NCBI GenBank assembly: GCA_038997305.1 | Contig: JAWAZZ010000001.1 | Coordinates: 44,159 to 108,158, forward strand | Source of the DNA: Candidatus Aenigmatarchaeota archaeon | GTDB taxonomy: Archaea > Aenigmatarchaeota > Aenigmatarchaeia > CG10238-14 > SpSt-28 | DNA: 64,000 bases | Direction: 5' to 3' | In this document: piece by piece, positions 870 to 31,688 of the stretch | Layout: each line of letters begins with the position of its first letter | How positions within the stretch are numbered: the stretch's first letter is position 1 | Notes under the pieces: generated by a model | Seen by the model: only the letters and a program-made list of their open reading frames with translations | The model's database searches: none | Told to the model about the DNA's origin: nothing | Translations under genes and position numbers: made by a program

Positions 870-894
870 TTATAAAAGCAAAATATAATATATT

Positions 895-9195: not shown

Positions 9196-10277
9196 TTCTT
9201 AAATATTTCTATTAAACTTTTAAAATCTTTTGTTCTTATCGATTTTGAATCTAAATAGCTTTTGCTTGCTTTAATACCTATTTCATTTAAAGATTTAATC
9301 AAAATTTCAATGCTTTTAACATTTGTTTTCAAATTTTTTGCAATTAAATGCGTATTAAAGGTAGTTGGTGGTAATGAATAATCTTCTGCAAAATCATTCA
9401 AACTTTTTTCAAATATTTTCTTTACATCGGAATGTTCAACACTCTTTATAGCTTTTGATAAAAATTTTTCATCAAATAACTTTCCTAAATATGTTGGGCC
9501 AATAATCTTCATTTTAGAGCCGCAATATTTGCATTCTTTTTCTATTTCTAAAGTTTTATATAGACATTGAGGGCAATAGCTGATGAAACCAATGTTATCT
9601 TTAAGCTTTTTTTGAACTTTCTTTTTTGAAGTTTTCCTTAACAATATATAAGTTTTTGCAAAGTGTTTTTCAGAATAGCTAAAAATAATTTCAAAAGAGA
9701 AACCAAAAGAAGAAAAATATCTTATCGAGTAAGAAATTAAATTTCTTAGAGCAATTTCATTTTTCATATCGTTTTCTGCACAAAAAATTCCATATCTAGC
9801 TAAACAAGCATCTGAGTATTTTCCTGATAATGTTCCTAAATCCGTTGCTGTTAAAGAAAGAAGAGTTTCTTTAGATAAAAAATCTATTACATATGGAAAG
9901 AATTTAATTGGAGAACCAAAAGGATCGATATCTATTATGTTGAATTTCTCCATTAATTTACATTTTAGATTCTTCGCATTCTCATTAAATACATTTATTT
10001 TTACTTCGTTAATTTTTGTATTCTCCTTCAATAAATTGATAGCATCTTTACTTACATCATTGGAATAAACTTCTAAAAAGGGTAAAGATTTTTTAACTCT
10101 TATTGAATTAGCTCCAATGGAAGCTAAAAGATCTAAAAATTTATATCCTTCTCTTGCATAATTCTTATAAATTTCTATATTGAGATTTCTGACTATTTTC
10201 ATTTGGGGATTATAAAAGGCTTTTTTATATAGAGGTTTTTCAATTAAAAGTTTCACATTTTCCTCAATAATTTCCAT
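9192..10277 (-). CDS. trm1: tRNA (guanine26-N2)-dimethyltransferase Trm1
   Basis: IDIDPFGSP motif and zinc-finger CPQC...CKYCGS. The track start is TTG, so I moved the start to the ATG of MEIIEENVKLL, which matches the start of Trm1 homologues. Confidence 0.8.
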   Translation of the reverse strand: MEIIEENVKLLIEKPLYKKAFYNPQMKIVRNLNIEIYKNYAREGYKFLDLLASIGANSIRVKKSLPFLEVYSNDVSKDAINLLKENTKINEVKINVFNENAKNLKCKLMEKFNIIDIDPFGSPIKFFPYVIDFLSKETLLSLTATDLGTLSGKYSDACLARYGIFCAENDMKNEIALRNLISYSIRYFSSFGFSFEIIFSYSEKHFAKTYILLRKTSKKKVQKKLKDNIGFISYCPQCLYKTLEIEKECKYCGSKMKIIGPTYLGKLFDEKFLSKAIKSVEHSDVKKIFEKSLNDFAEDYSLPPTTFNTHLIAKNLKTNVKSIEILIKSLNEIGIKASKSYLDSKSIRTKDFKSLIEIFKK

Positions 10278-10289
10278 ATTTTTCAAACA

Positions 10290-10312
10290 AACGAAAAAAA
10301 TATATAATTAAA
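10290..10312 (+). promoter_or_regulatory. putative archaeal BRE/TATA promoter for the 23S rRNA transcript
   Basis: cgaaaaaaatatataattaa, a purine-rich BRE-like stretch followed by a TATATAAT box about 150 nt upstream of the rRNA processing stem. Confidence 0.35.
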
Positions 10313-10454
10313 AGAAGTAGTTTAATAATATTGGCCGATGAGGATATTTTTTGTATAGAAAGCTGATAGAAGTGGGCACCTCCCGAGGCTAAAATGCAAC
10401 CCTTAGCTGTTATATGCTAAGGGTGAAGTTTGAAAGCGATGATACGAGCTTAAT

Positions 10455-10470
10455 GAGAGGGGATATAGGA
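10455..10470 (+). other. 5' half of pre-rRNA processing stem (pairs with 13513..13528)
   Basis: gagaggggatatagga is the exact reverse complement of tcctatatcccctctc on the 3' side of the 23S. Confidence 0.6.
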
Positions 10471-10477
10471 TAATATT

Positions 10478-13505
<3,028 letters not shown>

Positions 13506-13571: not shown

Positions 13572-13903
13572 ATGAAACTTATTTCATCAATCTTTCTAAA
13601 CTTAATTCTAGCAACTCTAATAGCTATTAGCACTATACTAATAATTTACTTCACTCAATTTTATCAAACAAAATATGTAGAAGAATTAGAAAGAATTAGA
13701 TTTAATCAGCAAGTTTATGATTTAGCAAAAAAATTAGCAAATTGCTTAGGATTTGAATATGAAAAAACTTATTACTTAGATTATAAAAAAATTGAAGAGT
13801 TTAGTAAAATTTATAATGATATAGAACCAAGATGTGCAATTGCAAAAGATTTTGATTATAATGTTAAAATAATACAATTTGAAAAAGAAGTTAGAAATTA
13901 TCC
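13572..13903 (+). repeat. 332-nt coding module, apparently identical to 16008..16339
   Basis: Read base by base, both copies run from the ATG through ...gaagttagaaattatcc and then diverge. Confidence 0.8.
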
Positions 13904-14963
13904 TTTTCCAATCTTTGAAGAAAAACCAAAAGGGAAAGGTATAGCAGAAGATATCTTAAATAGGATAGATGGAAAAAAGGTAATTTTTGTATTGGATGTT
14001 AGTGGTTCTATGGGAGCTGCAGATACTCCACCATGTAATGGAAAAGAATTTAATAGCGGAGATAATACTAGAATATGTTGCTTAAAAAAGTTTGTTATTC
14101 ATTTTCTAGATAAACTTTCTAACGATACTGAAATTGGAATTAATTTTTTTGGTGTTGGAAATTGCAATTATAATTGGGCTGTAAAACCATATTCAAATAT
14201 TTCTGTAATTTATGAAGTTGCAAAAAAACAAACTCTTTCTCAAACTCCTCAAGATGGCACTCCAATATTAATTTCTTTGTATGATGCAGCTATAAACGCA
14301 GAAAATAATTCTTACGTAGTTCTTCTTACAGATGGTGGAGAAAATTGTGGAGGAGTTAGTTTATCTGAAGTAATTAATTTAATTAAATCAAAAAATTTAA
14401 CTCTACTATCTATAGGTTTTGGAAAAGGTGCTGATGTAGGATTTTTGAAATATTTAAAATCTCAGGTCGGTGGAGAAGTTTATGAAGCTATGAATTGTGA
14501 AGAATTAATAGAAAAGAAGGAAGAGTTTAAACAAAAAATTCTAAAAGTCGAAAGAAAAGAATTTTCTTTTGGTATGTTAGAAAAAGAACTCGCAGGAATA
14601 AGATCTTTTGGTCCAAAAATAAACTTACAAACTTCAATTTCAATCCCAATTTTAATTAAGTACAACGAAACTTTTATAGTTGAAGGATTAATGATAATTA
14701 ATGCATATAAAGGATTTTTAGAAGAATTTTATAGTTTCTTAGACGATATTTGTTCAAAAGATTTTGATAATTTTGAAATTACAAAACAGTTTTATTTTGA
14801 TTATAATGTTAAAATTTTAAAAGAAAATGATTATTATAAAATTTGTAGCGAAAATGTTTGTAAAAAATTAGTTTGTAAGTATGAGATTGAAGAAAAAGAA
14901 TTTGATAAGGGAGATAATGTAATAAATGTGAAAATAGAAAATAAAAAAATTATTATTAGGTGA
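13572..14963 (+). CDS. membrane-anchored von Willebrand factor A (vWA) domain protein; shares identical N- and C-terminal modules with 16008..17798
   Basis: N-terminal TM MKLISSIFLNLILATLIAISTILIIYF. The MIDAS motif VLDVSGSMG and downstream QDGTP and LTDGGEN complete a vWA fold. Confidence 0.7.
   Translation: MKLISSIFLNLILATLIAISTILIIYFTQFYQTKYVEELERIRFNQQVYDLAKKLANCLGFEYEKTYYLDYKKIEEFSKIYNDIEPRCAIAKDFDYNVKIIQFEKEVRNYPFPIFEEKPKGKGIAEDILNRIDGKKVIFVLDVSGSMGAADTPPCNGKEFNSGDNTRICCLKKFVIHFLDKLSNDTEIGINFFGVGNCNYNWAVKPYSNISVIYEVAKKQTLSQTPQDGTPILISLYDAAINAENNSYVVLLTDGGENCGGVSLSEVINLIKSKNLTLLSIGFGKGADVGFLKYLKSQVGGEVYEAMNCEELIEKKEEFKQKILKVERKEFSFGMLEKELAGIRSFGPKINLQTSISIPILIKYNETFIVEGLMIINAYKGFLEEFYSFLDDICSKDFDNFEITKQFYFDYNVKILKENDYYKICSENVCKKLVCKYEIEEKEFDKGDNVINVKIENKKIIIR
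14533..14931 (+). repeat. 399-nt coding module, apparently identical to 17368..17766
   Basis: Both copies run from aaaaaattctaaaagtcgaaag through ...gataatgtaataaatgtga and then diverge. Confidence 0.8.
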
Positions 14964-15444: not shown

Positions 15445-15994
15445 TTAATTTTAAAATAATAAAGATAATTACAATTAGAAATGTTAAGAAAATGATGATT
15501 GCTAAATGGTTAGGGTAAGAGTATTTTCTTTCTTCTTTTATTTTTTCTCCTGGAGTTTCTGTACTTTCGTTTTCTAAAACTTTTAAAGTTTGATTTAGTA
15601 AAACTAGTTTAGCTTTTTCTTTATCGCTAATAAAAATTTTTATTAAAGTAGTGTTTTCCGGAAATTTAAAAACTAAGCTTTTTATTATATAATCTTTTTC
15701 TATTATTTCTTTTCCTCTTTTAATGCTAAAAACTTCTTGAAAAAAATCTTCTTTAGAGTAGTTTAGGTAGACAATTTTTAAAACATTGTTTGAAGGATCA
15801 TAGCAAACAACTTTAATATTTCCGCTATTTAAATAATTTTCGTTTGCGAAATCTAAAAAGTAATTTGCAGTAATTTTAACATCTTCGTTTTTACTTATAA
15901 GAATTTCTAAATAAAGAAACTTATCTGAAGAATAAGAATAATGTATTAAAGTGCTTAAGATTAATAAGGGTATTAATATTAATATTTTTTTCAT
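15422..15994 (-). CDS. secreted hypothetical protein with C-terminal TM anchor
   Basis: Signal peptide MKKILILIPLLILSTLIHYSYS and C-terminal TM LAIIIFLTFLIVIIFIILKLIKR. Start placed at the ATG giving MKKIL, 13 nt from the divergent start at 16008. Confidence 0.5.
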   Translation of the reverse strand: MKKILILIPLLILSTLIHYSYSSDKFLYLEILISKNEDVKITANYFLDFANENYLNSGNIKVVCYDPSNNVLKIVYLNYSKEDFFQEVFSIKRGKEIIEKDYIIKSLVFKFPENTTLIKIFISDKEKAKLVLLNQTLKVLENESTETPGEKIKEERKYSYPNHLAIIIFLTFLIVIIFIILKLIKRHRAP

Positions 15995-16007
15995 AAAATA
16001 TATTCTT

Positions 16008-16339
16008 ATGAAACTTATTTCATCAATCTTTCTAAACTTAATTCTAGCAACTCTAATAGCTATTAGCACTATACTAATAATTTACTTCACTCAATTTTAT
16101 CAAACAAAATATGTAGAAGAATTAGAAAGAATTAGATTTAATCAGCAAGTTTATGATTTAGCAAAAAAATTAGCAAATTGCTTAGGATTTGAATATGAAA
16201 AAACTTATTACTTAGATTATAAAAAAATTGAAGAGTTTAGTAAAATTTATAATGATATAGAACCAAGATGTGCAATTGCAAAAGATTTTGATTATAATGT
16301 TAAAATAATACAATTTGAAAAAGAAGTTAGAAATTATCC
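16008..16339 (+). repeat. second copy of the 332-nt module
   Basis: See 13572..13903. Confidence 0.8.
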
Positions 16340-17798
16340 AATACAAATTGGTGGTGGTTGTGGATGGGCATGGGTTGTTAATAGTGGTTCTGGAGGAATG
16401 CATAGTTCAATCTCCTTAGTTACTTCTGAAGGCTCTGAGTTAAGAAGACATTATACTCATCCAAATAAAGCGGGTAATCCATCTAGAACTGCTGTAGATA
16501 TCGAAGGAAATGTTTGGGTTGGAAATAGAGCAGATGGTACTTTAGTTAAAATCACATTTGACAAAAATAAATGTAAAGGAGCTACTTCTGAAGATAAAGA
16601 TGGTAATGGAAAAATTGATTATAATGAAATGCTTGATTTTTCTTCTGATGGATGTATAGAGATAAAGTTAGATTTAAAATGCAGTTATGTTGGTGTCAGA
16701 GCAGTTTGTATAGATAATGAATCAAAATACGTATATGCCGGTTGTTATAATGATAGGAAATTATTTAAAATTTCTAATAAAGATGGTAGCATAGAAAAAG
16801 TCTGGAATTTACCAGCAACTCCTTATGGATGTGTTGTTGGTAATGATGGAAATGTTTGGATTTCAACAGCTTCATCTATTTTAATAAAGTTAAATCCAAA
16901 TACTGATGAAATTAAAACATTTAGTGTTCCTTTCATATATGGCATTTGGAGATGTTATAATTTAGATTGTGTTGTTTTTTCTGAGTGGACTTTAAATAGA
17001 ATTGCACTATTTAATACGACATCTGAAAAAATAATATGGGAAAGATCTAGCGGAATAAATACAAGAGGAGTTTTTGTCGACGAAAATAATTACATTTATG
17101 CAGTAGGAAGTTCTAGTAATGATATATACAAGTATGATATAAATGGAAATTTAATAAAAGTCGCAAAGACTTGTGGAATACCTACAGGAGTTGCTCAAGA
17201 TGCTTGCGGTTATTTGTGGGTGCAATGTATGGATGGTTATGTTTACATTTTTGATAAAGACTTAAATTTAATAAATTTCTTTTCAATATCTGGAATTCAT
17301 TATACTTATTCAGACTTTACAGGATTTTTATCTAATGCAAAAGTTAGTGTGCCACTAAAAATTGAGGAAAAAATTCTAAAAGTCGAAAGAAAAGAATTTT
17401 CTTTTGGTATGTTAGAAAAAGAACTCGCAGGAATAAGATCTTTTGGTCCAAAAATAAACTTACAAACTTCAATTTCAATCCCAATTTTAATTAAGTACAA
17501 CGAAACTTTTATAGTTGAAGGATTAATGATAATTAATGCATATAAAGGATTTTTAGAAGAATTTTATAGTTTCTTAGACGATATTTGTTCAAAAGATTTT
17601 GATAATTTTGAAATTACAAAACAGTTTTATTTTGATTATAATGTTAAAATTTTAAAAGAAAATGATTATTATAAAATTTGTAGCGAAAATGTTTGTAAAA
17701 AATTAGTTTGTAAGTATGAGATTGAAGAAAAAGAATTTGATAAGGGAGATAATGTAATAAATGTGAGAGTAAGTGAAAGAAAATTAATAATTTCATAA
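16008..17798 (+). CDS. membrane-anchored beta-propeller-like protein with EF-hand-type Ca-binding loop; shares N- and C-terminal modules with 13572..14963
   Basis: The first 110 aa and last 133 aa are identical to the vWA paralog. The middle (GNVWVGNRADGTLVKI, DKDGNGKIDYNEM, repeated NVWIS/YVYA blades) is homologous to the N-terminal half of 38418..40652. The true start is ATG at 16008; the track start is upstream. Confidence 0.7.
   Translation: MKLISSIFLNLILATLIAISTILIIYFTQFYQTKYVEELERIRFNQQVYDLAKKLANCLGFEYEKTYYLDYKKIEEFSKIYNDIEPRCAIAKDFDYNVKIIQFEKEVRNYPIQIGGGCGWAWVVNSGSGGMHSSISLVTSEGSELRRHYTHPNKAGNPSRTAVDIEGNVWVGNRADGTLVKITFDKNKCKGATSEDKDGNGKIDYNEMLDFSSDGCIEIKLDLKCSYVGVRAVCIDNESKYVYAGCYNDRKLFKISNKDGSIEKVWNLPATPYGCVVGNDGNVWISTASSILIKLNPNTDEIKTFSVPFIYGIWRCYNLDCVVFSEWTLNRIALFNTTSEKIIWERSSGINTRGVFVDENNYIYAVGSSSNDIYKYDINGNLIKVAKTCGIPTGVAQDACGYLWVQCMDGYVYIFDKDLNLINFFSISGIHYTYSDFTGFLSNAKVSVPLKIEEKILKVERKEFSFGMLEKELAGIRSFGPKINLQTSISIPILIKYNETFIVEGLMIINAYKGFLEEFYSFLDDICSKDFDNFEITKQFYFDYNVKILKENDYYKICSENVCKKLVCKYEIEEKEFDKGDNVINVRVSERKLIIS
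17368..17766 (+). repeat. second copy of the 399-nt module
   Basis: See 14533..14931. Confidence 0.8.
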
Positions 17799-18476
17799 TT
17801 GCGTTTTCTTATATAATTTGACTTTGTTAATTCTTTTGGTATACATAATGAAGGTAATTATAGCTATTGCTATAATTAGAAGTATAAAAATTGAAATTGG
17901 CGGTATATAATATTCTTTGCAATCTGGATCTTCTGGGCAATTCGGTTCGCAATAATTATCTTTTAAATTTGGACAAATTTTTAATTTACAATCATTGCAA
18001 TTAATTTCATTTTCACCAAGCTTTTTTTCACATACTGAATTTTCATTACATATTTTTGTTTCTAGTATTTTTTGATCAAAATTGAACATTTCAATTTTAC
18101 TTAAATCTTTAAGATATGGAAATCTAAAATATTTTTCTAAACATTCGAATTCTACTTCTTCTCCCTTCATCTCTCCAGTAATAGGATCTATTATTTCTCT
18201 ATGAGTTTTAAAAGATTGTGAAAAATTATATTGCAGCAAAACAGAATTATTAGTAGAGTAGAGAAGTATGGTATAATTTCCAAAACCAATTTTATTTGAT
18301 TCTACATATTCTGGATTTTCAATTATTCCATAATCTATCAAAAAAACAGAATTATTTTTACATATATTTATTAGCAAATAAAATGTTTTATCACTTATTA
18401 TTTTTTCTTGGAAAGAAATTTCTAAGTAAATAGATATTATAAATAAAATTAATTGAGATAATAGTTTGATCTTCAT
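17793..18476 (-). CDS. secreted Cys-rich protein with C-terminal TM anchor
   Basis: Signal peptide MKIKLLSQLILFIISIYL, a CNDCKLKICPNLKDNYCEPNCPEDPDC cluster, and C-terminal TM FILLIIAIAIITFIMY. Confidence 0.5.
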   Translation of the reverse strand: MKIKLLSQLILFIISIYLEISFQEKIISDKTFYLLINICKNNSVFLIDYGIIENPEYVESNKIGFGNYTILLYSTNNSVLLQYNFSQSFKTHREIIDPITGEMKGEEVEFECLEKYFRFPYLKDLSKIEMFNFDQKILETKICNENSVCEKKLGENEINCNDCKLKICPNLKDNYCEPNCPEDPDCKEYYIPPISIFILLIIAIAIITFIMYTKRINKVKLYKKTQL

Positions 18477-18489
18477 AATATAAACTTAT

Positions 18490-19872
18490 TTATCTTATAC
18501 AATATTTCATCCATCTACCTAGGCCAGCAGAATAAGGAGGATTTCCCATAAATCCTTCAGATAAAAACTTATAGGCTGCCGGACCGAATTTTTCCATAGG
18601 TAAACAATAATCCATTATAAATTTAGAAACTTCTGGATGATTGCAATCTGGGCAATTAGGTGCAGGTCCACCAAAAAATGGATAATATAGGCATGCATGA
18701 CAATCTACATTACAATTAACATGACCCAAACCCAATTGATGTCCTAATTCATGAGTAGGTACACAAACACGTTTACTACAGCTATGAGCTATACTTGATG
18801 AGCCATCAGAAGGGATTCCTTGTGCGCATCCACCAGCCCAACCGCCACCAGTTGTTAATGCAACAAATTTATCATAATTAACTCCAAATTTATTCTCCAT
18901 TTTTCTTGCGCATTCTCTTGCTATGTCTATACAATCAGAACAATGGTCATAGCAATCTTTATTAGCAGATTCCGGACAATCTGAAATATTAATTATCCAA
19001 AACCTAACTATATCATCTTTATTCTTACATTCTCTAAATGGAGATACCTCAAGAAAATGCTCAATGAAAGATGTTGCAGCAGATAAATACAAGTTCTCAT
19101 CAGTAATATCTACAGGAACTATAAAGACGTCAAAAGTATCTAAATTTATGCAATCTTTTCCATTCCAAGATTTTCCTGGAGGACAACACGCTTTTCCAGA
19201 TTTGTATGATGTAAAATCTTTTGTAACAGGATTGCAAGTTAAGCCGCTAGAGCATTGATTATTGCAATAACATTCTTCACCTTCTTTTAAATTGTATCTT
19301 TTCGTATTTCCAGTTTCATCTGAGCTTGGATCTTCTGGACAGCATACCGCATCACTTTTAATACAATCATTAGAGTTTTTGCAATTTTCTCTTATGTCAA
19401 CATTGCAATAACCATCGTTTATGCATTGAGGATTTGGACCATAACAATCTTGAGAAGAAGTCCTACATTCTATTGGAGTACAAACATTATCGATTAAATA
19501 ATCTATTTTTCTGCAATCTAAAATTCTAATGACACTCTTTTCTTTTATAATACAATATTTGCCAGTATTATATATTTCTATATCTTGAGTTTTAAAAGGT
19601 AAATAATAAGAATATTCATAATCTTTGTAAAAAACTTTCAATTTATTGTCTTTTATTGTTAAGTTACTATATAAAAATTGGTATTCGTAATAAAAGTATT
19701 CGCTTTTTAATTTTGAAATTCTTTCTATTGTGGAAATGAATTTTTCAATTTCTTCGTTGAATTTTTGTTTTTCTAAACTTTTAGAAAAATTAAATAGAAA
19801 AATCTGAAATGCAGTAAAAAACAAAATTCCAATTACTATTGAAATCGTTATTAAGGAAAAAATATTTGTCAT
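18490..19872 (-). CDS. membrane-anchored metzincin-type zinc metalloprotease with Cys-rich module
   Basis: Exact HExxHxxGxxH motif (HELGHQLGLGH) with a downstream Met-turn candidate FIMDY. N-terminal TM. The Cys module GEECYCNNQCSSGLTCNPV...ACCPPGKSWNGKDC recurs in 38418..40652. Confidence 0.7.
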   Translation of the reverse strand: MTNIFSLITISIVIGILFFTAFQIFLFNFSKSLEKQKFNEEIEKFISTIERISKLKSEYFYYEYQFLYSNLTIKDNKLKVFYKDYEYSYYLPFKTQDIEIYNTGKYCIIKEKSVIRILDCRKIDYLIDNVCTPIECRTSSQDCYGPNPQCINDGYCNVDIRENCKNSNDCIKSDAVCCPEDPSSDETGNTKRYNLKEGEECYCNNQCSSGLTCNPVTKDFTSYKSGKACCPPGKSWNGKDCINLDTFDVFIVPVDITDENLYLSAATSFIEHFLEVSPFRECKNKDDIVRFWIINISDCPESANKDCYDHCSDCIDIARECARKMENKFGVNYDKFVALTTGGGWAGGCAQGIPSDGSSSIAHSCSKRVCVPTHELGHQLGLGHVNCNVDCHACLYYPFFGGPAPNCPDCNHPEVSKFIMDYCLPMEKFGPAAYKFLSEGFMGNPPYSAGLGRWMKYCIR

Positions 19873-20390
19873 GAAATTCTTAATATTAGGTAACCAATTT
19901 CCTCATCTGGCATAGGTATTGGCAAAACATAACTTTTTATCGTTTCTGAAGGTTTTAAATTATAACCATAGATTTCGTATAAGCTTTGGTTTTTATATAT
20001 AACTAGCTGCCATCTTTCTTTACCAATCATATTATCTAACATAGGATAAAGCAAATCTGAAGAATTATATGCTCCTAAAGCCATTCCATAATAAACAATT
20101 TTTCCTAAACCAAGATCTTCTTTAACTTTTTCTCTTTCACTTTCTTTCCATTTATTTAGAGTTAGTAGCGCATCTATCGATGTTTGTAAATAAGTTTTTT
20201 CTAATGTAGGTAATTTGGCTGTATAAACTGAAGCTAATGTTTTTAATGCTAAATCATCTATAACAGAAAATCTATGAAAATATTGGGATTTTGTTGAGAG
20301 TTGTGAAATGTAATACAATGTAATTACTATAACAATAGATGAAATTATTAAAATAATACCAATCCATATAATTTCACTTTGAAGTTTCAT
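19869..20390 (-). CDS. small protein with N-terminal TM helix (possible pilin-like or minor filament subunit)
   Basis: MKLQSEIIWIGIILIISSIVIVITLYY followed by a soluble ~140-aa domain. Co-oriented and overlapping the metzincin gene. Confidence 0.4.
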   Translation of the reverse strand: MKLQSEIIWIGIILIISSIVIVITLYYISQLSTKSQYFHRFSVIDDLALKTLASVYTAKLPTLEKTYLQTSIDALLTLNKWKESEREKVKEDLGLGKIVYYGMALGAYNSSDLLYPMLDNMIGKERWQLVIYKNQSLYEIYGYNLKPSETIKSYVLPIPMPDEEIGYLILRIS

Positions 20391-20419
20391 AAAATTAAAA
20401 TTAGTAAGGATATAATATT

Positions 20420-21748
20420 ATGTTAAAGTTACAAGTAGCACAATTTGCTTTTATAATATTTGCTATACTTTTTTTTCTTTTAAGTTTATATTTGTCATAT
20501 TTTCAATTTGGAAAAAGAATAGAAGAAATTAGCAATATAAGAACTATTGACATTTTTGAAAATTTGAAACATATTATAGATGGGTATGCGAAATTAGCAC
20601 TTTATTATGCTACAACTCAAAATTTTAGAGAAGAAAGTCATGTATGGATTCAAAATGGATTCAATCCGCTAGAGTTTGAACTTTTAAAAGAATGCAAAGA
20701 AAATTACACTACATTTTTCTTTAATCAATATCTTTCAAAATTTAATGTTAATTTACCAGTTAATATAGAAATTAAAAAAGTAAACAGATGCTTTTTTGAT
20801 TTAAAAGAAGAAAATGTTTTTAGTGGCTTGAACGATGAGGGAAATTTTTCTGTTTTTTGCAATTCTACTAACGTAAAAATTTATATAAATGAAACATTTC
20901 TTTTAGACTTTATTAATTCTTCTAACTTTATAACTAACAACAGGTATTGGTATCTTTATAGAAAGTTTTATGAATGGGCTAAAGAAAATGCAGATAAATT
21001 TGTGGCTTGTGTCTGTTCATTAGTAAAATCTTGTGCAACCTGTAATGCAATAGAAACATGTTATAAAGGCTTATTAGAAAGTTTGAGAAATAAGTTTAAA
21101 GATGATAAATATGTTGAATGTAATACAGATCCTACTCCTTGTTGCTATCAAGAATATGGCGATTTATGTAAATTACCAGATGTTTGTCAAGCATGGCAAA
21201 ATAGATGTTATGTTGCAGATAAGTTGGATTGTCCTATACTAGAAGAATCAGATGAGAAAAAAACACACGGCTATAAAAATCATAACGAAAACAACTACTT
21301 AATAGAATTTTCTAAAAATGTAGTTCTTTCTAATCCTCAAAATTATGTTACCGAATTTTATTGTGAAAGTTGTATATGGCAAGAGAATAGAATAGAAACT
21401 CATAGAAGATATTATTGTATAGATTATAAGTACTATGAATCAAGTCCTTCTGGTCCAAAACCAATAGAATTTACTGCGATAGTTTATGCTGGCTTAAAGA
21501 ACTATGTTTCTTGCATTTCTAAAGTCAAAAATAAGTGCGAAAGTATAACCACAGAATGTGAAAATTGTAATGATGTTGGAGGTAAAACTATATGTGATAA
21601 ATGTATTTTAAAAAACTGTGAAAAAAAGGGATGTAAAGAATGTTGGTTAGAGTGCGAAGAATGTGAAGTTAAGAAATTAAATGGAGAATTCGAAGTTATC
21701 CAGTGTAAAAAATGTAAGAATAAGCCAGATGATGTCTGTCCAAAATGA
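20420..21748 (+). CDS. membrane-anchored Cys-rich protein
   Basis: N-terminal TM with more than 35 Cys. C-terminal CENCNDVGGKTICDKCILKNCEKKGCKECWLECEECE cluster. Confidence 0.5.
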   Translation: MLKLQVAQFAFIIFAILFFLLSLYLSYFQFGKRIEEISNIRTIDIFENLKHIIDGYAKLALYYATTQNFREESHVWIQNGFNPLEFELLKECKENYTTFFFNQYLSKFNVNLPVNIEIKKVNRCFFDLKEENVFSGLNDEGNFSVFCNSTNVKIYINETFLLDFINSSNFITNNRYWYLYRKFYEWAKENADKFVACVCSLVKSCATCNAIETCYKGLLESLRNKFKDDKYVECNTDPTPCCYQEYGDLCKLPDVCQAWQNRCYVADKLDCPILEESDEKKTHGYKNHNENNYLIEFSKNVVLSNPQNYVTEFYCESCIWQENRIETHRRYYCIDYKYYESSPSGPKPIEFTAIVYAGLKNYVSCISKVKNKCESITTECENCNDVGGKTICDKCILKNCEKKGCKECWLECEECEVKKLNGEFEVIQCKKCKNKPDDVCPK

Positions 21749-22131
21749 AAACAATAGAAATAATATTAGTTTTAATTTTTTCAGTTTTTGGATTAGTACT
21801 TCTATTAAATTATATCTTTGGAATAAAATTTATTAAATTTGAAAGCGAAGAATTGACATTTCTAAAAAAAGAGGATTTTTTGTTTAAGATTAATGAGTTA
21901 GTTTCTAATTGTTTAAATAAAAAGACTAACAAAAGAGAAATTTGCTATTACGTCTATTACAAAGGTTTGCAAGATGTTTCTTCTGAAGAAATACTTTCAA
22001 AAATAATTCCTGAAAACAGAAATAAAATTAAAATAACTTTCGAAAAATTGATTAGCAACGAAAAAATTATAATAATTTATGTTCCTTTTGATTTGGTTGA
22101 AATTGTAAAATATTCTGAAATATCAAAATAA
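21745..22131 (+). CDS. small protein with N-terminal TM helix (pilin-like candidate)
   Basis: MKTIEIILVLIFSVFGLVLLLNYIFG plus a ~100-aa domain. Start overlaps the upstream stop (ATGA). Confidence 0.4.
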   Translation: MKTIEIILVLIFSVFGLVLLLNYIFGIKFIKFESEELTFLKKEDFLFKINELVSNCLNKKTNKREICYYVYYKGLQDVSSEEILSKIIPENRNKIKITFEKLISNEKIIIIYVPFDLVEIVKYSEISK

Positions 22132-22135
22132 TTTT

Positions 22136-24193
22136 ATGATAAGTGAACAAAAATTAGAACAATTAAAAAAAGAGTTTTCGACATATTATTTGGAATTTTA
22201 TTTAAAAGAAATAGAAAAATCTGCAAGAAGAAACTGGTATGAAAAACTTTGTGCAATTTCTTCAAAAATTTTACCTATAAAGGCATATCCTAAAAAACTT
22301 TCAGAAACCATAATTTTTTCTAATTTGAATGTTTTACCGAATGAAGTTGTAAGTTTAACAATACTTTCTTTTTTAATTCTTTTTGGAGTTTCTTTAATTC
22401 TATATTTCATTTTTACTGATTTGGGAATTTTTGTTTTTGCTTTGCCAATAGGCATTTCATACATTCTATATACTTATCCAGATTTTAAGGCAAAAGTAAA
22501 TAGAATTCAAACAAATTCAGAAGCAATAAAAATAATTACTTATCTTGTTTTATATTTAGAAACAATTCCAAATTTTGAAGGAGCAATAGATTTTGCAGCA
22601 AGAAGAGTTAAAGGAATTATTAGCGATGATATGAAAAAAATTTCTTGGGATATTAGAACTGGAAAGTTTTCGACATTAAAAGAAGCATTAGAGCATTATA
22701 TTCCAAAATGGTTAAAATGGAATGAAAATTTTGTGAGAGCTTTAATTTTGTTATCAAATATATCTTATGTAACTTCTAGTGAAGAAAGAAAAACATTATT
22801 AAGAAAAACATTAGATTTTATTTTGGCAAAAAACTTAGAGGAAACGAAAATTTATGTAGAAAAAGTCAGAGGTCCTATAACTATTTTGTTTCTTTTTGGA
22901 TTATTGATGCCATCTATAGGTTTAATAATGTTTCCTATGATTTCTGTATTTTTGCATTTTAGCGTAAAACCATCTTACATAATTTTTGGATATTTGGTTG
23001 TATTACCTCTTATGAACTATTACTTAATAACTAGAGTAATTTCTTTAAGACCAGGAGCTTTTCTTATAGTAGATATATCTAAGCATCCAAAATTGCCTCC
23101 AGAGAATTATTTTTATTATGGAAATGTTTTAATACCCATAATACCTCTATCAATTTTAGTTTTTGCATTGGTTAGTTTTTATGGAATAAATCATATAGGA
23201 AATTTTTATATCGAGTTTAATAGGCAGCTAGAAATAAATCCTAAAAAAGCAGAGGAAATGCTAAGAGCCGAAAATAATATTCAAAACTATGCTGGCTTAG
23301 CTGCTAGCTTTTCCATAACATTAGGTTTTGGTCTAGCCGCTTTTTTATACTTTTATCTAAACTCTTTTCAAAAGGTAAGAATTAGAAAAGAAGTTAAGGA
23401 TATTGAAGAAGATCTACCAAACTTGTTAATTACTAGTGGAAATTTCTTAGAAGCTGGGTATCCTTTTGAAAAAACGATAGAAAAAACTTTGGAGGAATAT
23501 GAAAGATTAGGAATGAAAGAAAAAGCTGGTTATAAATTTTATTCTTTGTTAAAGGAGAGAATTGTAAAGTTTGGAGAAAACATATATGAAGCAATCTTTG
23601 GAAGTAATGGTTTGATTTTTTATTTTCCATCCGTTTTATTGGAAGAAGTCTTTAGAATAATAACTGAAACTTCTAAAAAAAGTGTTAGAAGCGCTGGAAC
23701 TATTGCTAAAACAATTTCTAGATATTTAGAAAATATTTGGCAAACAGAATTTAGATTGAAAGAATTATTGGCAGATGTTAGAGGAAATTTAAAAATGCAA
23801 GCTCAATTTTTAATTCCTATAATTACAGGAGTTATTAGTGCTACTGGAATTTTTATAATAAGTTTATTATCTTTCTTAGCAGATTACTTAAGTAGGTTTG
23901 AAAAAAGTTTCGGAATAACTTCAGGAATTTCTGAGGTTATTAATGTTATGGTCGGAGATTTTAAAAGAGTAATACCAATGCCTTTATTACAAGCCGTTGT
24001 TGGATGTTATACTGTAATAGCAATAATATTGATGTCTTACTTGCTTAGTGGAGTTGAAAATGGATTTGATAGAGTTGCTAGAGATGATGAAATTTCTCAA
24101 AACCTAAAGTTTGGTTTGATAATATACTTTATAATAGGAATAGCATCTCTAATAGTTTTTGCAAATATAATATCTTCTTTACAATTAACATAA
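22136..24193 (+). CDS. polytopic membrane protein, TadC/FlaJ/GspF-like platform protein candidate
   Basis: 685 aa built as (helical cytoplasmic domain + ~3 TM) x2, resembling type II/IV secretion F-domain platform proteins. Flanked by small N-terminal-TM proteins. The assignment is by architecture only. Confidence 0.4.
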   Translation: MISEQKLEQLKKEFSTYYLEFYLKEIEKSARRNWYEKLCAISSKILPIKAYPKKLSETIIFSNLNVLPNEVVSLTILSFLILFGVSLILYFIFTDLGIFVFALPIGISYILYTYPDFKAKVNRIQTNSEAIKIITYLVLYLETIPNFEGAIDFAARRVKGIISDDMKKISWDIRTGKFSTLKEALEHYIPKWLKWNENFVRALILLSNISYVTSSEERKTLLRKTLDFILAKNLEETKIYVEKVRGPITILFLFGLLMPSIGLIMFPMISVFLHFSVKPSYIIFGYLVVLPLMNYYLITRVISLRPGAFLIVDISKHPKLPPENYFYYGNVLIPIIPLSILVFALVSFYGINHIGNFYIEFNRQLEINPKKAEEMLRAENNIQNYAGLAASFSITLGFGLAAFLYFYLNSFQKVRIRKEVKDIEEDLPNLLITSGNFLEAGYPFEKTIEKTLEEYERLGMKEKAGYKFYSLLKERIVKFGENIYEAIFGSNGLIFYFPSVLLEEVFRIITETSKKSVRSAGTIAKTISRYLENIWQTEFRLKELLADVRGNLKMQAQFLIPIITGVISATGIFIISLLSFLADYLSRFEKSFGITSGISEVINVMVGDFKRVIPMPLLQAVVGCYTVIAIILMSYLLSGVENGFDRVARDDEISQNLKFGLIIYFIIGIASLIVFANIISSLQLT

Positions 24194-24194
24194 T

Positions 24195-24554
24195 ATGCTA
24201 GCATTAGATACTGTTTTTTTGGTTTTGATTGGTATAGTAACTATAATAGCTGTTTCTAGTTTAATACTTGCTTATAAGGATAAAGTTATTGATTTTTTCT
24301 ACAGATTTTTTTCTAAAGAAGAAAATATAAACTATTGCTATACAACATACTACGAAGGAATCGAAGATGTTAGTAATTTATGTAGAATTTGCTTGAATTT
24401 GGGAAAGAAGTTAAAGAATAATTGCTATTGTTTTGTCATTTATTCTAACAATGTTTATTCTGATTTATGTGAAAATAGATGTTCTATTTCAGATAATAAA
24501 ATTTGGCTAATAAAGTATGATGTTTCTAAAAATAAAGTTTTTATTGAGTGCTAA
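24195..24554 (+). CDS. small protein with N-terminal TM helix and Cys-containing domain (pilin-like candidate)
   Basis: MLALDTVFLVLIGIVTIIAVSSLILAY followed by a ~90-aa domain with 6 Cys. Confidence 0.4.
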   Translation: MLALDTVFLVLIGIVTIIAVSSLILAYKDKVIDFFYRFFSKEENINYCYTTYYEGIEDVSNLCRICLNLGKKLKNNCYCFVIYSNNVYSDLCENRCSISDNKIWLIKYDVSKNKVFIEC

Positions 24555-25020
24555 CATTGTTAGAATATCTTATTAAATCAAAATATATACTATATTCGTT
24601 TATGCCGAAGAAATCTCTTTTAATGACTTTTGTCTCATCGTAATAAACTATAGGTATAGAAATATTACAAGAAAGTCTTTCACAATAAACTCTTTTGTCT
24701 TTCATCCATAAGCATAAGAAATTTCCTACTGTCAAATTCTTATTGTTAATGTATTCTTCTATTAAATCTCTAGAAATTTTTTCTATATCATCTATTGCGA
24801 ATATTGCAAAAAGATTTTGATTCACTATTAATTTCTCTTTTGTTTGAGTATATGGAAAACTCCAGCAAAGGTTTTGAACTTGATTATAAAATATTTTGAA
24901 TTGCTCTTCGACTTTTTTGTTGCTTTCGTTTTTAAAATGCAAAGATAATATATAAAAGATTGAAGATAAAAGTATTGAAAGAATTATTACTGCAAATATT
25001 ATTTGAAATGGGATTTCCAT
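24541..25020 (-). CDS. small protein with N-terminal TM helix (pilin-like candidate)
   Basis: MEIPFQIIFAVIILSILLSSIFYILSL plus a soluble domain. Confidence 0.45.
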   Translation of the reverse strand: MEIPFQIIFAVIILSILLSSIFYILSLHFKNESNKKVEEQFKIFYNQVQNLCWSFPYTQTKEKLIVNQNLFAIFAIDDIEKISRDLIEEYINNKNLTVGNFLCLWMKDKRVYCERLSCNISIPIVYYDETKVIKRDFFGINEYSIYFDLIRYSNNVSTQ

Positions 25021-25023
25021 AAT

Positions 25024-25458
25024 TTAATAATTGATTACAAGTACACTTTCTTTTTTGCAATTAAAGATTATTAGTGCATTACTTAAATAAGGATTAAAGA
25101 GATTGGCATCAACATAATACAGTTTTCCTTTATATTCTATAGGAAAAAATTTTGGTAAAGAGGCTTGGGATAAATCCCCATCTGTAACTATAAAATAGCA
25201 AGTAACATAACCATTTTTACAATTATAGTTTTCAACGCTTTCTCTTATGCAAGAATTTATTAATTCCAAAAAAACCTCGCTAGTTGGTTCTTTTTTAAAA
25301 TGTAGATACGTTACTTCTTTGAATTTTTTTGATTGGTTAATTTCACTAAAATATGACATTACAAAAGATTGTATAGCTAAATATATCATTAGAATTACTA
25401 TTGTTGCTATCATACTTATAAGCATTACAAAAACAACGTTTATGGCAAGTAATTTCAT
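25024..25458 (-). CDS. small protein with N-terminal TM helix (pilin-like candidate)
   Basis: MKLLAINVVFVMLISMIATIVILMIYLAI. The track start is TTG, so I moved it to the ATG. Confidence 0.45.
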   Translation of the reverse strand: MKLLAINVVFVMLISMIATIVILMIYLAIQSFVMSYFSEINQSKKFKEVTYLHFKKEPTSEVFLELINSCIRESVENYNCKNGYVTCYFIVTDGDLSQASLPKFFPIEYKGKLYYVDANLFNPYLSNALIIFNCKKESVLVINY

Positions 25459-25459
25459 A

Positions 25460-25993
25460 TTATGCAATAACTTCTATAGCATCTATATTGTGATTATATT
25501 TTATTATAACTATAGAATCTTTTGATATTTCATAATCTTTTACTTTCCAAACTACATCATCTCTATATCCACAATCAAAAGTTTTCATTTGTAAACTTTT
25601 ACAACCATCGTATTGTTTAATAAACATAGAAACATTTTCTGGAAAAATTTTTATATTTTCTTGCATGGGTGAGAAATCTATTTCATAGCAGGTATAATCT
25701 CTATCATAAACTTTATATCGTTGAATTGTTTGTATGCATTCGAAAAGGTATGAAGTAAATTTAGAGATTGCCTCTTCTTCATTATTAGCATAAAACTTAA
25801 TTCTTTCAGTTATTAAATTTTGAGATTTACAATATTCTGGAATAGTTTCTTTAGGAAAGATTTTGAGATAAACATTGCAATATAAATAATTTTGAATCCT
25901 TTCTCTTAAAGCTATTAAAATTGAAATTGAAATAACTATTGCAGCTATTATTATTATAAAAAACCAAGTTGTTTCTATTGCAATTAGCTTCAT
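25460..25993 (-). CDS. small protein with N-terminal TM helix (pilin-like candidate; MK|LIAIE resembles a prepilin cleavage motif with Glu at +5)
   Basis: [29 protein letters not shown] plus a ~140-aa domain. Confidence 0.45.
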
Positions 25994-30000: not shown

Positions 30001-30588
30001 GATTGTAGTAGTGGATATTTCTGTGATGCTGGAATATGTAAATCGCGTATAGGAGAAGAAGTTAAAAAATGCAATTCGCAAGGAAAGGTTTATATTGGGC
30101 ACGAATCAGAAAACAACAAATGTTGTGAGAGAGAAAAAGTAAATGTTATGATATGTGAAGGTAGTGATTGTCCTACTTATTCTTTTAGAGCAGAAGAATG
30201 GATAACTCATAAAGATACTATTTTAGATTATTTGACAGGAAAGATAGATTATTCGCAATTCAGCAACTTAGTTAGTGCTGATGTAAGACTAAAGCTACTA
30301 CAATTACAATCTACAAAGAACATAATGTGCTGTGGAGATTGGAAAAAGTGTGTGTATAATGGAAAATGCTATAATGAAAATAGTGTAGAAAAAATTAATC
30401 AAAAAGATTTTGTTTGTAAATTAGGCAAATGGATACAAATAGACTCTTGTAAGATTAATAGGGCATACGTACAGAATAATAATTTAATTTTAGAAGTTTC
30501 TTTGGGTTGTGGCGGAATAATTTCTGGTAATCAAGTTAATGTAGGAATAGAATGTAAGAGGATTAATAAAGATGGCCAGTGTGTATAA
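27004..30588 (+). CDS. giant multidomain membrane protein: calcineurin-like metallophosphoesterase domain + ~300-aa coiled coil + TM hairpins + C-terminal Cys-rich domain
   Basis: Phosphoesterase motifs in canonical order: DIH, GDVFDKREG (GDxxDR), GNHD, GHTP. A long heptad-like Glu/Lys/Gln region follows. Hydrophobic block LTLGGIIGLTLQTILAIKIALEAGIRVALAVVITGPFGWLSLLVLAAIIVAIGAFMCFIYV. The C-terminal ~450 aa hold more than 45 Cys. The annotated start is TTG; see the frameshift note on the previous feature. Confidence 0.6.
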   Translation: MEKKGFQFNSINDCQKLADLLYTSFLLSYADLGNKLLSDIINFQLTLSSAILEGILRYAQGTAVLAGTQTNTKIYLFNDIHQNARNFIYEVVEILKENGLEPGKDFWIVEKKFNDYEYYTLEFSSNAKNKINKNIKIIFAGDVFDKREGDMEMDEFKEKLDKRVLEKLDENAKSNFFKNLNVLGEKREDIGKNSRILSHTILSIMDSLEELLGSDNVIRLLGNHDVYQYYIVDSERVKKLTVTMSHSIPFTRGKDLVEYYWNKGRLIYVYYEDGIVNIYTNSQSGFLIKEFLERLAKSLEGKNLNELSENELKRIIKEVSEEFDRNAKFIAGENSEVGIVKYTYERFMNFEDDVNKQTTDVNDNLNKLSEIIKKKFGNRFKFVIITGHTPVSSLNYYYSSPNIDLFITDNPEKRASRSLIIFDKEKISVRVIPHGVDYFVSIQKPKLNVGGGGLSSEDVKKIKNTKSQIDVAREINGEISKAEEEVEKAKTISERLDVLKRVFSRLKDFFSKKSQEVDRVFIDPEPTQTRPIKQALDASIQKSEEGLRAVQSGNLEEANKKFDEIRKEFKQLAENILKNAGDRIQEVYQKLQGNSQAEQSLNKNIEESIRNQQSELSKQGENIQRTAASTDVAKSVTESTEKLASSQLSQQGRSLLQKLKTSVSAFKTFSTTINNLASKISPLLIFVPMIEIGRNLELYEIPYGEEVSLALTLGGIIGLTLQTILAIKIALEAGIRVALAVVITGPFGWLSLLVLAAIIVAIGAFMCFIYVTQRGGGDFGQCLLYGISFGTAKYCDLYAAKYYFRDINDFDKKTEKQKPSEYTYFTVLYPDYREIKLYAEGIPRIGTEKCPADNYLGPIKVYEGHNYFIRIKHLGSNMERYDLTKFIVEKDGSGRSEGTFCLTSKSSCSKDATDFPFEVGKQYLVIIDERGWYIVEPLGSGIKKSVPVGVLYIYENKNACSNLGGKCVDVSKAQDPKQIIYHGVCKAGEICIKECKSDSDCSSGYFCDAGICKSRIGEEVKKCNSQGKVYIGHESENNKCCEREKVNVMICEGSDCPTYSFRAEEWITHKDTILDYLTGKIDYSQFSNLVSADVRLKLLQLQSTKNIMCCGDWKKCVYNGKCYNENSVEKINQKDFVCKLGKWIQIDSCKINRAYVQNNNLILEVSLGCGGIISGNQVNVGIECKRINKDGQCV

Positions 30589-31651
30589 CATTAGAAAAAT
30601 CAATATTGAAAAAGGTGGAAAAAACATAGCTTTAATTATTTTTATGTTTTTACTTTCCTTTACTTCTTTTGGTTTATCCCAGCAAAATATGTTAAAATGT
30701 ACTAATAATTATCTATTGGTTTCTTGTTTAGTAGATAATTGCTATTCTGGAGTGGTTATTGTCAATAATTCTTATGAAGTTTACACTATATCAATAGATA
30801 TAAATTCAAACTCATTTAATATTCAACCAAAAGGCAGTGAAATATTTTTTACGGTTATTTGTCAAGCTCCACAAAAAGTAGAAGAGTATAAGTATAAAAT
30901 AAATAATGTTATACTTTCGGATACATTCCAAAATGTTAATAACCAACTTATAGTTGGGAGAGGATGCTATAGCATAAGAACAGAAGTTAGTGGAAGCACT
31001 AGCTTTCTATATCTAGAAAAATATAGATATTCTGAAGGTGGATGTGAAGAAAGTCAAAAAGTTCAAACATTAAAAATTCCTTTGAAAAGCAAGGATGTGA
31101 TAATTCACGTAAATTGTAAATGCATAGAAAACAAAGGACTCTTATTGTCTATTGGAGATTTTGCTAGTGTAAACGAAGTAACATTAGCATCTTCAGATGA
31201 AGTAGTAATTTATTTGAAAAAAGGATGGAACATGATATCTAATCCGTCTGATAAGCCAATAACTTTAGAAGATTTTAGGAAAAGCGGATGTAATATTAGG
31301 TCTATTTGGAAATATGAAAACAAGAAATGGCAAAGACCTACTGAAATATCAAACGATGCAAAAGGTTATTTTGTTTATGCAACTAACGATTGTGTATTAA
31401 GAGTTAAAAAACCATCAAAATCGAATGTAATATTAACTAACGAACTTTCAATTACTTTACAAAAAGGATGGAATTTAATTAGAGGTATTGATGGGTTAAC
31501 TTGTGAAGATTTAGAGAGACTAGGATGTAAGTTATCATCAAAATCAAAAAACAAATGTTTTTGGATATATCAGAATAAGAAATGGGTAAGAACAAATGTG
31601 ACTGAGATGCTATATGGGTATTGGGTATATTGTAGAGAAATTGTTAAGTAA
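30572..31651 (+). CDS. secreted protein with N-terminal Cys-containing domain and two C-terminal ~62-aa aromatic GWN repeats
   Basis: Signal anchor ALIIFMFLLSFTSFGLS. C-terminal repeats LKKGWNMISNP...WKYENKKWQRP...KGYFVYATNDC and LQKGWNLIRG...WIYQNKKWVR...YGYWVYCRE. Confidence 0.6.
   Translation: MASVYNIRKINIEKGGKNIALIIFMFLLSFTSFGLSQQNMLKCTNNYLLVSCLVDNCYSGVVIVNNSYEVYTISIDINSNSFNIQPKGSEIFFTVICQAPQKVEEYKYKINNVILSDTFQNVNNQLIVGRGCYSIRTEVSGSTSFLYLEKYRYSEGGCEESQKVQTLKIPLKSKDVIIHVNCKCIENKGLLLSIGDFASVNEVTLASSDEVVIYLKKGWNMISNPSDKPITLEDFRKSGCNIRSIWKYENKKWQRPTEISNDAKGYFVYATNDCVLRVKKPSKSNVILTNELSITLQKGWNLIRGIDGLTCEDLERLGCKLSSKSKNKCFWIYQNKKWVRTNVTEMLYGYWVYCREIVK
31211..31640 (+). repeat. tandem pair of ~62-aa GWN(L)-W.YENGKW-GKGYW.Y modules (coding)
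   Basis: Protein-level repeat visible in the translation of 30572..31651. Confidence 0.6.
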
Positions 31652-31688
31652 TATGGATAAATATTTATTGTTAAACAAAATAATAATT

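Follow-up and report, generated by a model that had tools for sequence, protein, structure and literature searches.

A probable cell-surface protease of the metzincin type, apparently exchanged together with its partner gene in a type-IV-pilus-like locus of an Aenigmatarchaeota-type archaeon

The gene considered here (the target) is encoded at 18490..19872 on the minus strand of a 64-kb stretch of archaeal DNA, the whole of which is referred to as the window. Its open reading frame (ORF) is intact, with an ATG start and 460 amino acids (aa) plus stop, and its closest homologue (86% identity) is annotated as Candidatus Aenigmatarchaeota archaeon, a DPANN lineage. An earlier note on this stretch had described the product as a membrane-anchored metalloprotease of the metzincin type. 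The parts of the protein are listed in Table 1. The proposed N-terminal transmembrane (TM) anchor is borne out by a hydrophobic segment at the very start of the protein. The product contains 34 cysteines (7.4%), in even numbers in each of its regions (2, 16 and 16), and each of the 14 close homologues likewise has an even count in its catalytic domain. The Cys modules are predicted to be of the disulfide type. One of them (GEECYC...ACCPxGKxWNGxxC) occurs in exactly two copies in the window, at aa 198–241 of the target and in the transglutaminase-like protein encoded at 38418..40652 (50% identity over 98 aa, E 4e-21), in agreement with the earlier note. The even Cys counts and the hydrophobic N-terminus are extracellular indicators, and the target may be taken to face outward.

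The TGA stop of the upstream gene overlaps the target ATG (ATGA), and the downstream gene, referred to below as the partner, begins 13 nt past the target stop; the target is thus the middle gene of a compact three-gene operon. A scan for sigma-70 promoters and terminators gave no enrichment over shuffled sequences, the sigma-70 model not being meaningful for an archaeon. Divergently from the operon, 20420..21748 (+) encodes a protein of 442 aa, of which 7.2% are Cys; it has a hydrophobic N-terminus, matches no family and is 66% identical to a counterpart at the equivalent position of a related locus (L003, see below).

Table 1. Features of the target locus. Nucleotide positions refer to the window; aa positions refer to the target protein, unless the feature is another protein.
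Feature	Position	Strand	Basis
Whole target coding sequence: anchor, stalk, Cys modules, metzincin-type catalytic domain	18490..19872	-	ORF and motif analysis
N-terminal hydrophobic helix, predicted membrane anchor	aa 4-22, 19807..19863	-	Kyte-Doolittle 2.55; within AlphaFold2 (AF2) helix aa 2-53
Anchor/stalk module, one long helix and five-stranded sheet	aa 1-125, 19498..19872	-	common to homologues with differing protease domains
Two Cys-rich spacer modules, 16 Cys	aa 126-242, 19147..19497	-	motif and paralogue comparison
Cys module B	aa 198-241, 19150..19281	-	paralogous copy in 38418..40652 protein
Metzincin-fold catalytic domain, 16 Cys, C-terminal ~218 residues	aa 243-460, 18493..19146	-	fold and motifs
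Zinc-binding motif HELGHQLGLGH	aa 374-384, 18721..18753	-	conserved across 131 family domains
Met-turn motif FIMDYC	aa 418-423, 18604..18621	-	Met, Tyr and Cys conservation; serralysin alignment of a family member
Downstream partner, 227 aa: signal peptide, ~110-aa beta-rich domain, Cys-rich stalk, C-terminal TM (aa 194-212), basic tail	17793..18476	-	sequence analysis
Inferred exchangeable cassette: catalytic domain and partner ectodomain	18014..19146	-	no counterpart in otherwise collinear L003
Upstream operon gene, 173-aa Cys-free protein, hydrophobic N-terminus	19869..20390	-	70% identical orthologue at equivalent position of L003
685-aa polytopic membrane protein, ~8 TM-like segments	22136..24193	+	T2SSF platform (TadC/FlaJ/PilC-type) by transitive homology
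Paralogous surface protein: beta-propeller, Cys module (39489..39773), transglutaminase-like C-terminal domain	38418..40652	+	homology to target module

The zinc-binding sequence HELGHQLGLGH, singled out in the earlier note, is indeed an exact HExxHxxGxxH motif and contains the only HExxH in any window ORF of at least 60 aa; the full motif has a chance expectation of 1.1e-3 in a six-frame translation. In the AF2 model, the helix carrying the motif stops just ahead of Gly381. Fetched family members were aligned to the profile of the catalytic domain without imposing any motif, resulting in 131 domains which span both the zinc motif and the Met-turn. The first His is conserved in 127 of these, the Glu in 129, the second His in 130, the Gly in 110 and the third His in 127. 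At the Met-turn, Met is found in 128 domains (the remaining 3 have Leu), Tyr at position +2 in 127 and Cys at position +3 in 108. This conservation argues for strong selection for catalytic competence across the family, and every catalytic residue is present in the target, as in about 97% of the members.

The earlier note had proposed FIMDY, about 35 residues downstream, as a Met-turn candidate. Met420 lies 36 residues past the third His, and the proposal holds at the level of sequence: one family member (P0043) aligns to serralysins without gaps from the zinc motif to the Met-turn (E about 1e-3), with HEIGHTLGLyH over serralysin HEIGHTLGLSH and, 28 residues on, fVMSYcs over sVMSYWS. Since FIMDY is conserved and supported by this alignment and ACLYYP, the other candidate segment, is not conserved, we regard FIMDY as the correct Met-turn, of the Met-x-Tyr type. 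ACLYYP was rejected as a Met-turn: it lies in an indel-prone loop with a gap in 64 of the 131 members, and its use would place Tyr at the Met position.

By analogy with the chemistry of the metzincin clan, the zinc ion would be bound by His374, His378 and His384, with Gly381 at the turn, Glu375 would act as the general base that activates water, and Met420 would form the hydrophobic base under the metal. Tyr422, two residues past Met420, is a probable additional, swinging zinc ligand, as in serralysins and astacins, where the Met-turn Tyr is a zinc ligand (PMC9848320; PMC6949598). The target would then cleave peptide bonds by the standard metzincin mechanism. A check for propeptide or cysteine-switch features, suggested in the earlier note, found neither. 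The PRCGXPD cysteine-switch prodomain of matrixins (M10A) (PMC6949598) has no equivalent in the target sequence, which contains no PRCG, no RCGxPD and no Cys-Gly dipeptide; with even Cys counts in every region, no unpaired Cys is evident for such a switch. The catalytic domain begins about 5 residues past the last Cys of the stalk, and the regions upstream of it are unlikely to be a specific prodomain because they are common to unrelated proteases (see below). The target thus appears to be made without a propeptide or a cysteine switch.

The family to which the catalytic domain belongs is rare. In an exhaustive profile search of 1.84 billion (1.84e9) cluster representatives at E <= 1e-3, only 128 representatives matched the catalytic-domain profile, and the domain was almost always C-terminal. 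In Pfam, the target and ten other members all stay below the gathering cutoffs of the families concerned (Reprolysin_2-5, Peptidase_M10, M43, M66, M57); the best match of the target is Reprolysin_3 (17.1 bits vs a cutoff of 22.4), and Peptidase_M10 (15.2 bits vs a cutoff of 24) matches the zinc helix alone. No match of the target was found to Peptidase_M54, or to any model in an NCBIfam scan. The metzincin fold itself is displayed by the domain, with an N-terminal subdomain of beta-sheet and helices and a C-terminal subdomain ending in a helix, in support of the metzincin-type identity claimed in the earlier note, although outside every named family. Against known metzincins the catalytic domain scores 11.3 with atrolysin C and with B. 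fragilis MPII, 11.2 with ADAM8, 10.8 with fragilysin, 10.6 with CpaA, 10.4 with IgA protease and 8.5 with ulilysin, while astacin and matrix metalloproteinases (MMPs) reach about 5.5–5.8 and fall outside the top 27; Foldseek agrees. A broad family profile matches archaemetzincin (E 1.2e-6) and also adamalysins, myroilysin, M64-like peptidases, pappalysins, serralysins and MMP-8, all weakly and without clear preference for any metzincin family. In a profile search of genome contigs, two of the matches listed were bacterial and confined to the zinc motif, and a word-indexed search with the broad family alignment was unproductive (2 hits). The loci of two distant members (L012 and L013) have a GC content of 48–51%. 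The domain is best described, as judged from these comparisons, as a separate, rare and uncurated metzincin family, which would belong to none of the astacins, matrixins, serralysins, adamalysins or archaemetzincins, and which pairs an adamalysin/archaemetzincin-like body with a Met-x-Tyr turn of the serralysin/astacin type.

The N-terminal part of the target is found in combination with other enzymes. A 26.6-kb contig (L003) is collinear with window positions 15951..25993 over ten genes at 40–84% identity. The gene at the position of the target matches aa 1–243 only (58% identity) and continues with a Peptidase_C1 (papain) domain. Other homologues with the target-type anchor carry a second type of papain domain, a C25-like (gingipain-like) domain or a transglutaminase-like domain, the last sharing 39% identity, over 393 aa, with the C-terminal half of the 38418..40652 protein. 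As the transglutaminase-like domain sits on the anchor elsewhere and behind a beta-propeller in the window, the modules are shuffled combinatorially. Between L003 and the window, similarity to the target extends to aa 243 and is found again from about aa 155 of the partner onward. Because similarity is lost across this stretch, it may be delimited as one contiguous cassette (about nt 18014..19146), and we infer that the catalytic domain and the partner ectodomain behave as one exchangeable unit.

A similar picture is seen elsewhere in the window. The products of 13572..14963 (+) and 15951..17798 (+) are nearly the same at both ends (98% identity in the first 114 aa and 94% in the last 143 aa) and differ in the middle, with a vWA domain vs a beta-propeller of the SGL/Vgb-lyase type. 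This looks like a recent duplication with internal domain exchange, and would be a second example of cassette shuffling. Genes resembling mobile elements were also noted: a Cas12f1/TnpB-like gene (10111..11322 of L008) lies about 2.5 kb from the protease operon of that locus, and a LAGLIDADG homing-endonuclease-like gene (11905..12501 of L003) is found close to genes for RNA-polymerase subunits. The two are signatures of mobile elements in the neighbourhood of variable loci.

The ectodomain of the partner co-varies with the type of catalytic domain, as compared across six metalloprotease loci, two papain loci and one C25 locus. The beta-rich domain of the partner is homologous in all six metallopeptidase loci (the window, L001, L002, L006, L008 and L011; E 1e-10 to 1e-47). 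The protease of L011 has an entirely different N-terminal architecture, yet its partner domain is homologous; hence it is the catalytic domain, and not the anchor, that the partner goes with. The partners of the two papain loci carry another domain, of the DUF333 type (mutually 47% identical, E 9e-49), and the C25 locus displays a third partner architecture. Between these classes, similarity is limited to the Cys-rich stalk and the anchor. A literature search on DUF333 returned nothing beyond prefix matches of the DUF333x kind, such as DUF3335. A comparable pair of genes is found at the transglutaminase-like gene of the window: 40642..41322 (+) overlaps 38418..40652 by 11 nt and encodes a 226-aa partner-like protein whose parts are a signal peptide, a beta domain weakly resembling BatD/DUF11, a Cys stalk and a TM segment at the C-terminus, so that this pair has the layout of the target operon, an enzyme with an anchored partner.

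Between about 13.5 and 44 kb of the window, almost all products have hydrophobic N-termini, and many of them are rich in Cys. The 685-aa protein encoded at 22136..24193 is homologous to two L001 proteins (E 1e-100 and 1e-128) which themselves match Pfam T2SSF at E 1.9e-5, and to an L013 protein (E 4e-33) whose gene adjoins a T2SSE ATPase gene. In L013, a series of small genes with hydrophobic N-termini precedes the gene of a distant family member, near the T2SSE ATPase and the platform gene. Platform proteins of the TadC/FlaJ type belong to archaeal type IV pilus (T4P) systems, of which vWA proteins are known associates (PMC4858521), and a vWA protein is encoded in the window. A direct Pfam scan of the small neighbouring ORFs and of the 685-aa protein returned no pilin or T2SSF family, a profile of the 685-aa protein had no match in the PDB, and neither an ATPase nor a prepilin peptidase was found among the window proteins scanned. 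DPANN T4P loci are described as containing unrecognisable pilins and 'specific surface proteins' (PMC6393860). The target locus is, on this evidence, predicted to be T4P-like. Surface peptidases that belong to the transglutaminase family are tied to archaeal T4P loci, with a role that is unknown (PMC4858521). They resemble the present case as surface proteases within such loci, and a transglutaminase-like domain is found both on a target-type anchor (P0015) and in this window; in contrast to them, the target is a metallopeptidase, and neither domain swapping nor a partner gene is described there. In L001, two paralogous T2SSF-like platform genes (358..2430 and 9681..11804) flank the protease locus, matching the tendency of euryarchaeal T4P loci to hold two tadC-like genes (PMC4858521).

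Based on these data, we consider it probable that the target is a zinc endopeptidase at the cell surface of a DPANN archaeon of the Aenigmatarchaeota type, that it belongs to a rare metzincin family and that it forms, together with its partner, an exchangeable cassette in a T4P-like locus. The N-terminal hydrophobic helix would hold the protein in the membrane, the long helix with its small beta-sheet and the two Cys modules would serve as a stalk, and the C-terminal 218 residues would be the protease. The partner may bind and control its cognate catalytic domain, either as an inhibitor or immunity protein or as a dedicated chaperone, two options that appear about equally likely, and such control would stand in for the missing propeptide. 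The protease probably acts on an external protein, of the host-cell envelope or among environmental peptides, and the earlier suggestion of a protease that processes surface proteins or host material is plausible.

Several observations weigh against this interpretation. No curated family model is matched at threshold, and the family assignment rests on fold and motifs. HMMER puts the non-conserved segment ACLYYP (CLYYP) opposite the Met-turns of MMPs (ALMYP) and adamalysins (CIM), and the block of the AF2 model that contains FIMDY reaches a pLDDT of only 63, so that the geometry of Met and zinc is a sequence-level prediction. With regard to topology, there is no positive charge ahead of the hydrophobic stretch of the target and there are Lys residues behind it, and hence the positive-inside rule alone does not favour an outward orientation. 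The co-variation of partner and catalytic domain has a small base of nine loci; in L013, the most distant metalloprotease locus, the downstream gene has no detectable similarity to the partner, and the comparison of the transglutaminase-type partner covered only 74 aa on the contig. Searches of Pfam and the PDB with the partner domain, both as single sequence and as profile, returned no relatives.

The arrangement may, tentatively, be read as a polymorphic effector/immunity system, in which the exchangeable protease would serve, on the cell or on a pilus, as a contact-dependent weapon or as an effector for attacking the host, and the partner would be a surface-anchored immunity inhibitor that protects the envelope of the producer. 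Polymorphic toxins have a constant N-terminus, a variable C-terminal domain and a downstream immunity gene, and both papain-fold and transglutaminase domains are known among their toxin domains (PMC3482391). The target locus has this same layout: a conserved N-terminal part is combined with four unrelated C-terminal enzymatic domains, and the gene directly downstream co-varies with the catalytic domain. Some distant family members are fused to peptidoglycan-active enzymes, which would also fit: P0032 joins an SLT lytic transglycosylase, the metallopeptidase domain and an M14 carboxypeptidase behind a pilin-like N-terminus (KG-EISE), and P0110 (10001..12280 of L012) is a fusion of VanY to the metallopeptidase domain. 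These fusions hint at an envelope-directed activity in some members of the family. However, arrays of orphan toxin or immunity cassettes were seen neither in the window nor in those fetched loci that include flanking sequence, the searches detected no trafficking or immunity domain of a known kind, and, compared with typical immunity proteins, the surface-anchored partner is much larger and more elaborate; moreover, conflict systems of the polymorphic-toxin kind are reported to be scarce in archaea (PMC3482391).

About as likely, and equally tentative, is a role of the partner as a dedicated chaperone of an effector: the partner would be a membrane-anchored foldase or export helper, and the protease would scavenge nutrients or degrade matrix. 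A precedent is CpaB, the membrane-anchored chaperone of the metzincin effector CpaA in type II secretion of Acinetobacter (PMC4713064), where a metzincin is likewise combined with an adjacent membrane-anchored protein. However, an anchor of the CpaB type is an N-terminal TM segment, whereas the partner carries a signal peptide that looks cleavable and has its TM segment at the C-terminus, and the two are unrelated in fold. The partner has no sequence similarity to any chaperone, and the target protease is itself predicted to stay anchored, with no need for export through an outer membrane; the function proposed here for the pair is a prediction.

Equally tentatively, the anchor may be a type IV pilin-like domain with a class III signal. 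The protease would then be mounted on a pilus-like filament, or at its tip, that the TadC/FlaJ-type machinery encoded nearby would assemble, and would not simply sit in the membrane. The predicted shape is that of a 'lollipop', consisting of the helix (aa 2–53, hydrophobic in its first half) and the 5-stranded sheet in the AF2 model. In distant relatives, the module starts with [KR]-G, after which come x3-5-S-E and a hydrophobic run; this start is seen in 20 of 110 full-length members, with variants in 17 more, and relatives with the target-type anchor module do show KG-x3-5-SE. The T2SSF-type platform gene and the many small genes with hydrophobic N-termini at the locus are in line with a pilin origin, as are the combination of T2SSE ATPase, platform gene, small genes and family member in L013 and the unrecognised pilins known from DPANN T4P loci (PMC6393860). 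A class III signal consists of a short, positively charged leader ending in [KR]-[GAS], followed by about 20 hydrophobic residues (PMC4858521). The target has no such leader and no conserved Glu, its hydrophobic run being preceded by M-T-N only. A database-scale search with the anchor alignment gave no significant match. Elsewhere in the window, 35380..36087 (+) encodes a 235-aa protein which starts with MLNIRGLKG/FTAIEIVFLIFIL, a textbook prepilin motif of the bacterial style (Gly -1, Phe +1, Glu +5); homologues of this protein exist in L001 and L002, and no Pfam pilin family is matched.

Combining these elements, we may speculate about a DPANN cassette system, in which a pilin-derived surface anchor in T4P-like loci is armed with interchangeable proteases (metzincin, papain, gingipain-like, transglutaminase-like), each of them exchanged together with a cognate surface-anchored inhibitor or immunity ectodomain. 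Such a system would amount to an extracellular counterpart, in archaea, of polymorphic toxin-immunity systems and would attack or remodel host envelopes. The exchange of unrelated proteases together with a partner at one locus would suggest diversifying selection as in conflict systems.

A housekeeping role appears unlikely, in which the protease would mature or degrade the cell's own pilins or surface proteins encoded nearby. The location of the target among about 20 secreted or anchored proteins would suit such a function. Neither the replacement by mechanistically unrelated proteases (metallo vs cysteine) at one conserved locus nor the need for a domain-specific partner would be expected of it.

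DPANN archaea depend on other cells, and the ways in which they breach or remodel the envelope of the host are largely unknown. 'Dark matter' without annotation makes up most of the DPANN surface genes (PMC6393860). Both the chemistry and the fold of the target are already known, and are not categorically new. Three features are new: a metzincin family, rare and uncurated, whose signature is a hybrid and which lacks a propeptide; a metzincin mounted C-terminally on an anchor that may derive from a pilin, in DPANN T4P-like loci; and the exchange of the protease domain together with its cognate partner. No description of such an arrangement was found in the literature searched, including papers on archaeal T4P and on dark-matter loci. 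The locus may thus be a concrete candidate for host interaction: its catalytic mechanism can be recognised, its display scaffold is defined, and a specific binding partner is predicted.

With respect to family, it seems rather improbable that the catalytic domain is a divergent member of the adamalysins/reprolysins (M12B), archaemetzincins (M54) or serralysins (M10B) instead of a family of its own. The residue after the third His is Asp in the adamalysins and reprolysins, whose C-I-M Met-turn follows about 15–20 residues downstream, Pro in the serralysins, which carry a C-terminal RTX beta-roll, and Ser in MMPs. In the family of the target, this residue is Val (57), Ile (35) or Leu (18) in 110 of the 131 domains, and Val in the target. 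Unlike the snake-venom metalloproteinases and ADAMs of M12B, the target stays below all Pfam cutoffs, has no Asp after the third His, has no detectable prodomain or cysteine switch and shows the reverse order of parts, with the anchor and the Cys-rich modules at the N-terminus and the protease at the C-terminus; the position aligned to the CIM Met lies in the loop discussed above and is not conserved.

The serralysins and astacins (M12A) resemble the target in that a long spacer separates the third His from the Met-turn, and in the Met-x-Tyr motif. The Met-x-Tyr of serralysins (PMC6949598) is present as I-M-D-Y in the target, the Tyr being kept in 127 of 131 domains and a candidate ligand. In contrast to serralysins, the target is below the Peptidase_M10 cutoff and ends 38 residues past the Met-turn motif. 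Astacins are defined by Glu after the third His, EXXRXDRD and SIMHY (PMC9848320), a signature that is not found in the target. The archaemetzincins (AmzA, MEROPS M54) have Cys after the third His and the fingerprint HEXXHXXGXXHCX4CXMX17CXXC with a Cys4 zinc finger (PMC3427221). The target lacks both the Cys after the third His and C-x-M; its conserved Met lies instead 36 residues downstream in an I-M-x-Y-C motif, and the protein is predicted to be secreted or anchored and rich in disulfides. Past the third His, the target reads H-V-N-C-x3-C-x2-C-L-Y...C-x2-C, in the indel-prone loop, and this Cys pattern is partly kept in the wider family. A Cys4 zinc finger might be considered for C387/C391/C394/C407/C410; the even Cys counts and the presumed extracellular setting would favour disulfides instead.

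Finally, a catalytically dead adhesin or binding domain with a retained protease-like fold, to which the degenerate metal sites of a few members (QE..H...C in P0105 and P0130, QE..H in P0114) might point, is very improbable for the target, as all catalytic residues are kept in it and in about 97% of the family. As an observation on the family at large, five members (P0105, P0130, P0114, P0127 and P0143) have degenerate metal sites (QE..H...C, H-M..H) and yet keep the IM-x-Y motif; these are likely pseudo-proteases.

Further features of the window were noted. Four large secreted proteins (30572..31651, 31614..35339, 36155..38380 and 41358..43775, all +) share a repeated N-terminal module of about 150 aa ('LKKGWNLISLP...') with up to 84% identity (31614..35339 vs 41358..43775), for which no Pfam family exceeds the cutoff. 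A complete archaeal large subunit (LSU) rRNA gene lies at 10479..13504 (+), with 53% GC vs about 27% elsewhere. The small subunit rRNA gene is not found in the 64-kb window, and the rRNA genes appear to be unlinked. The ORFs listed within the LSU rRNA gene are spurious.

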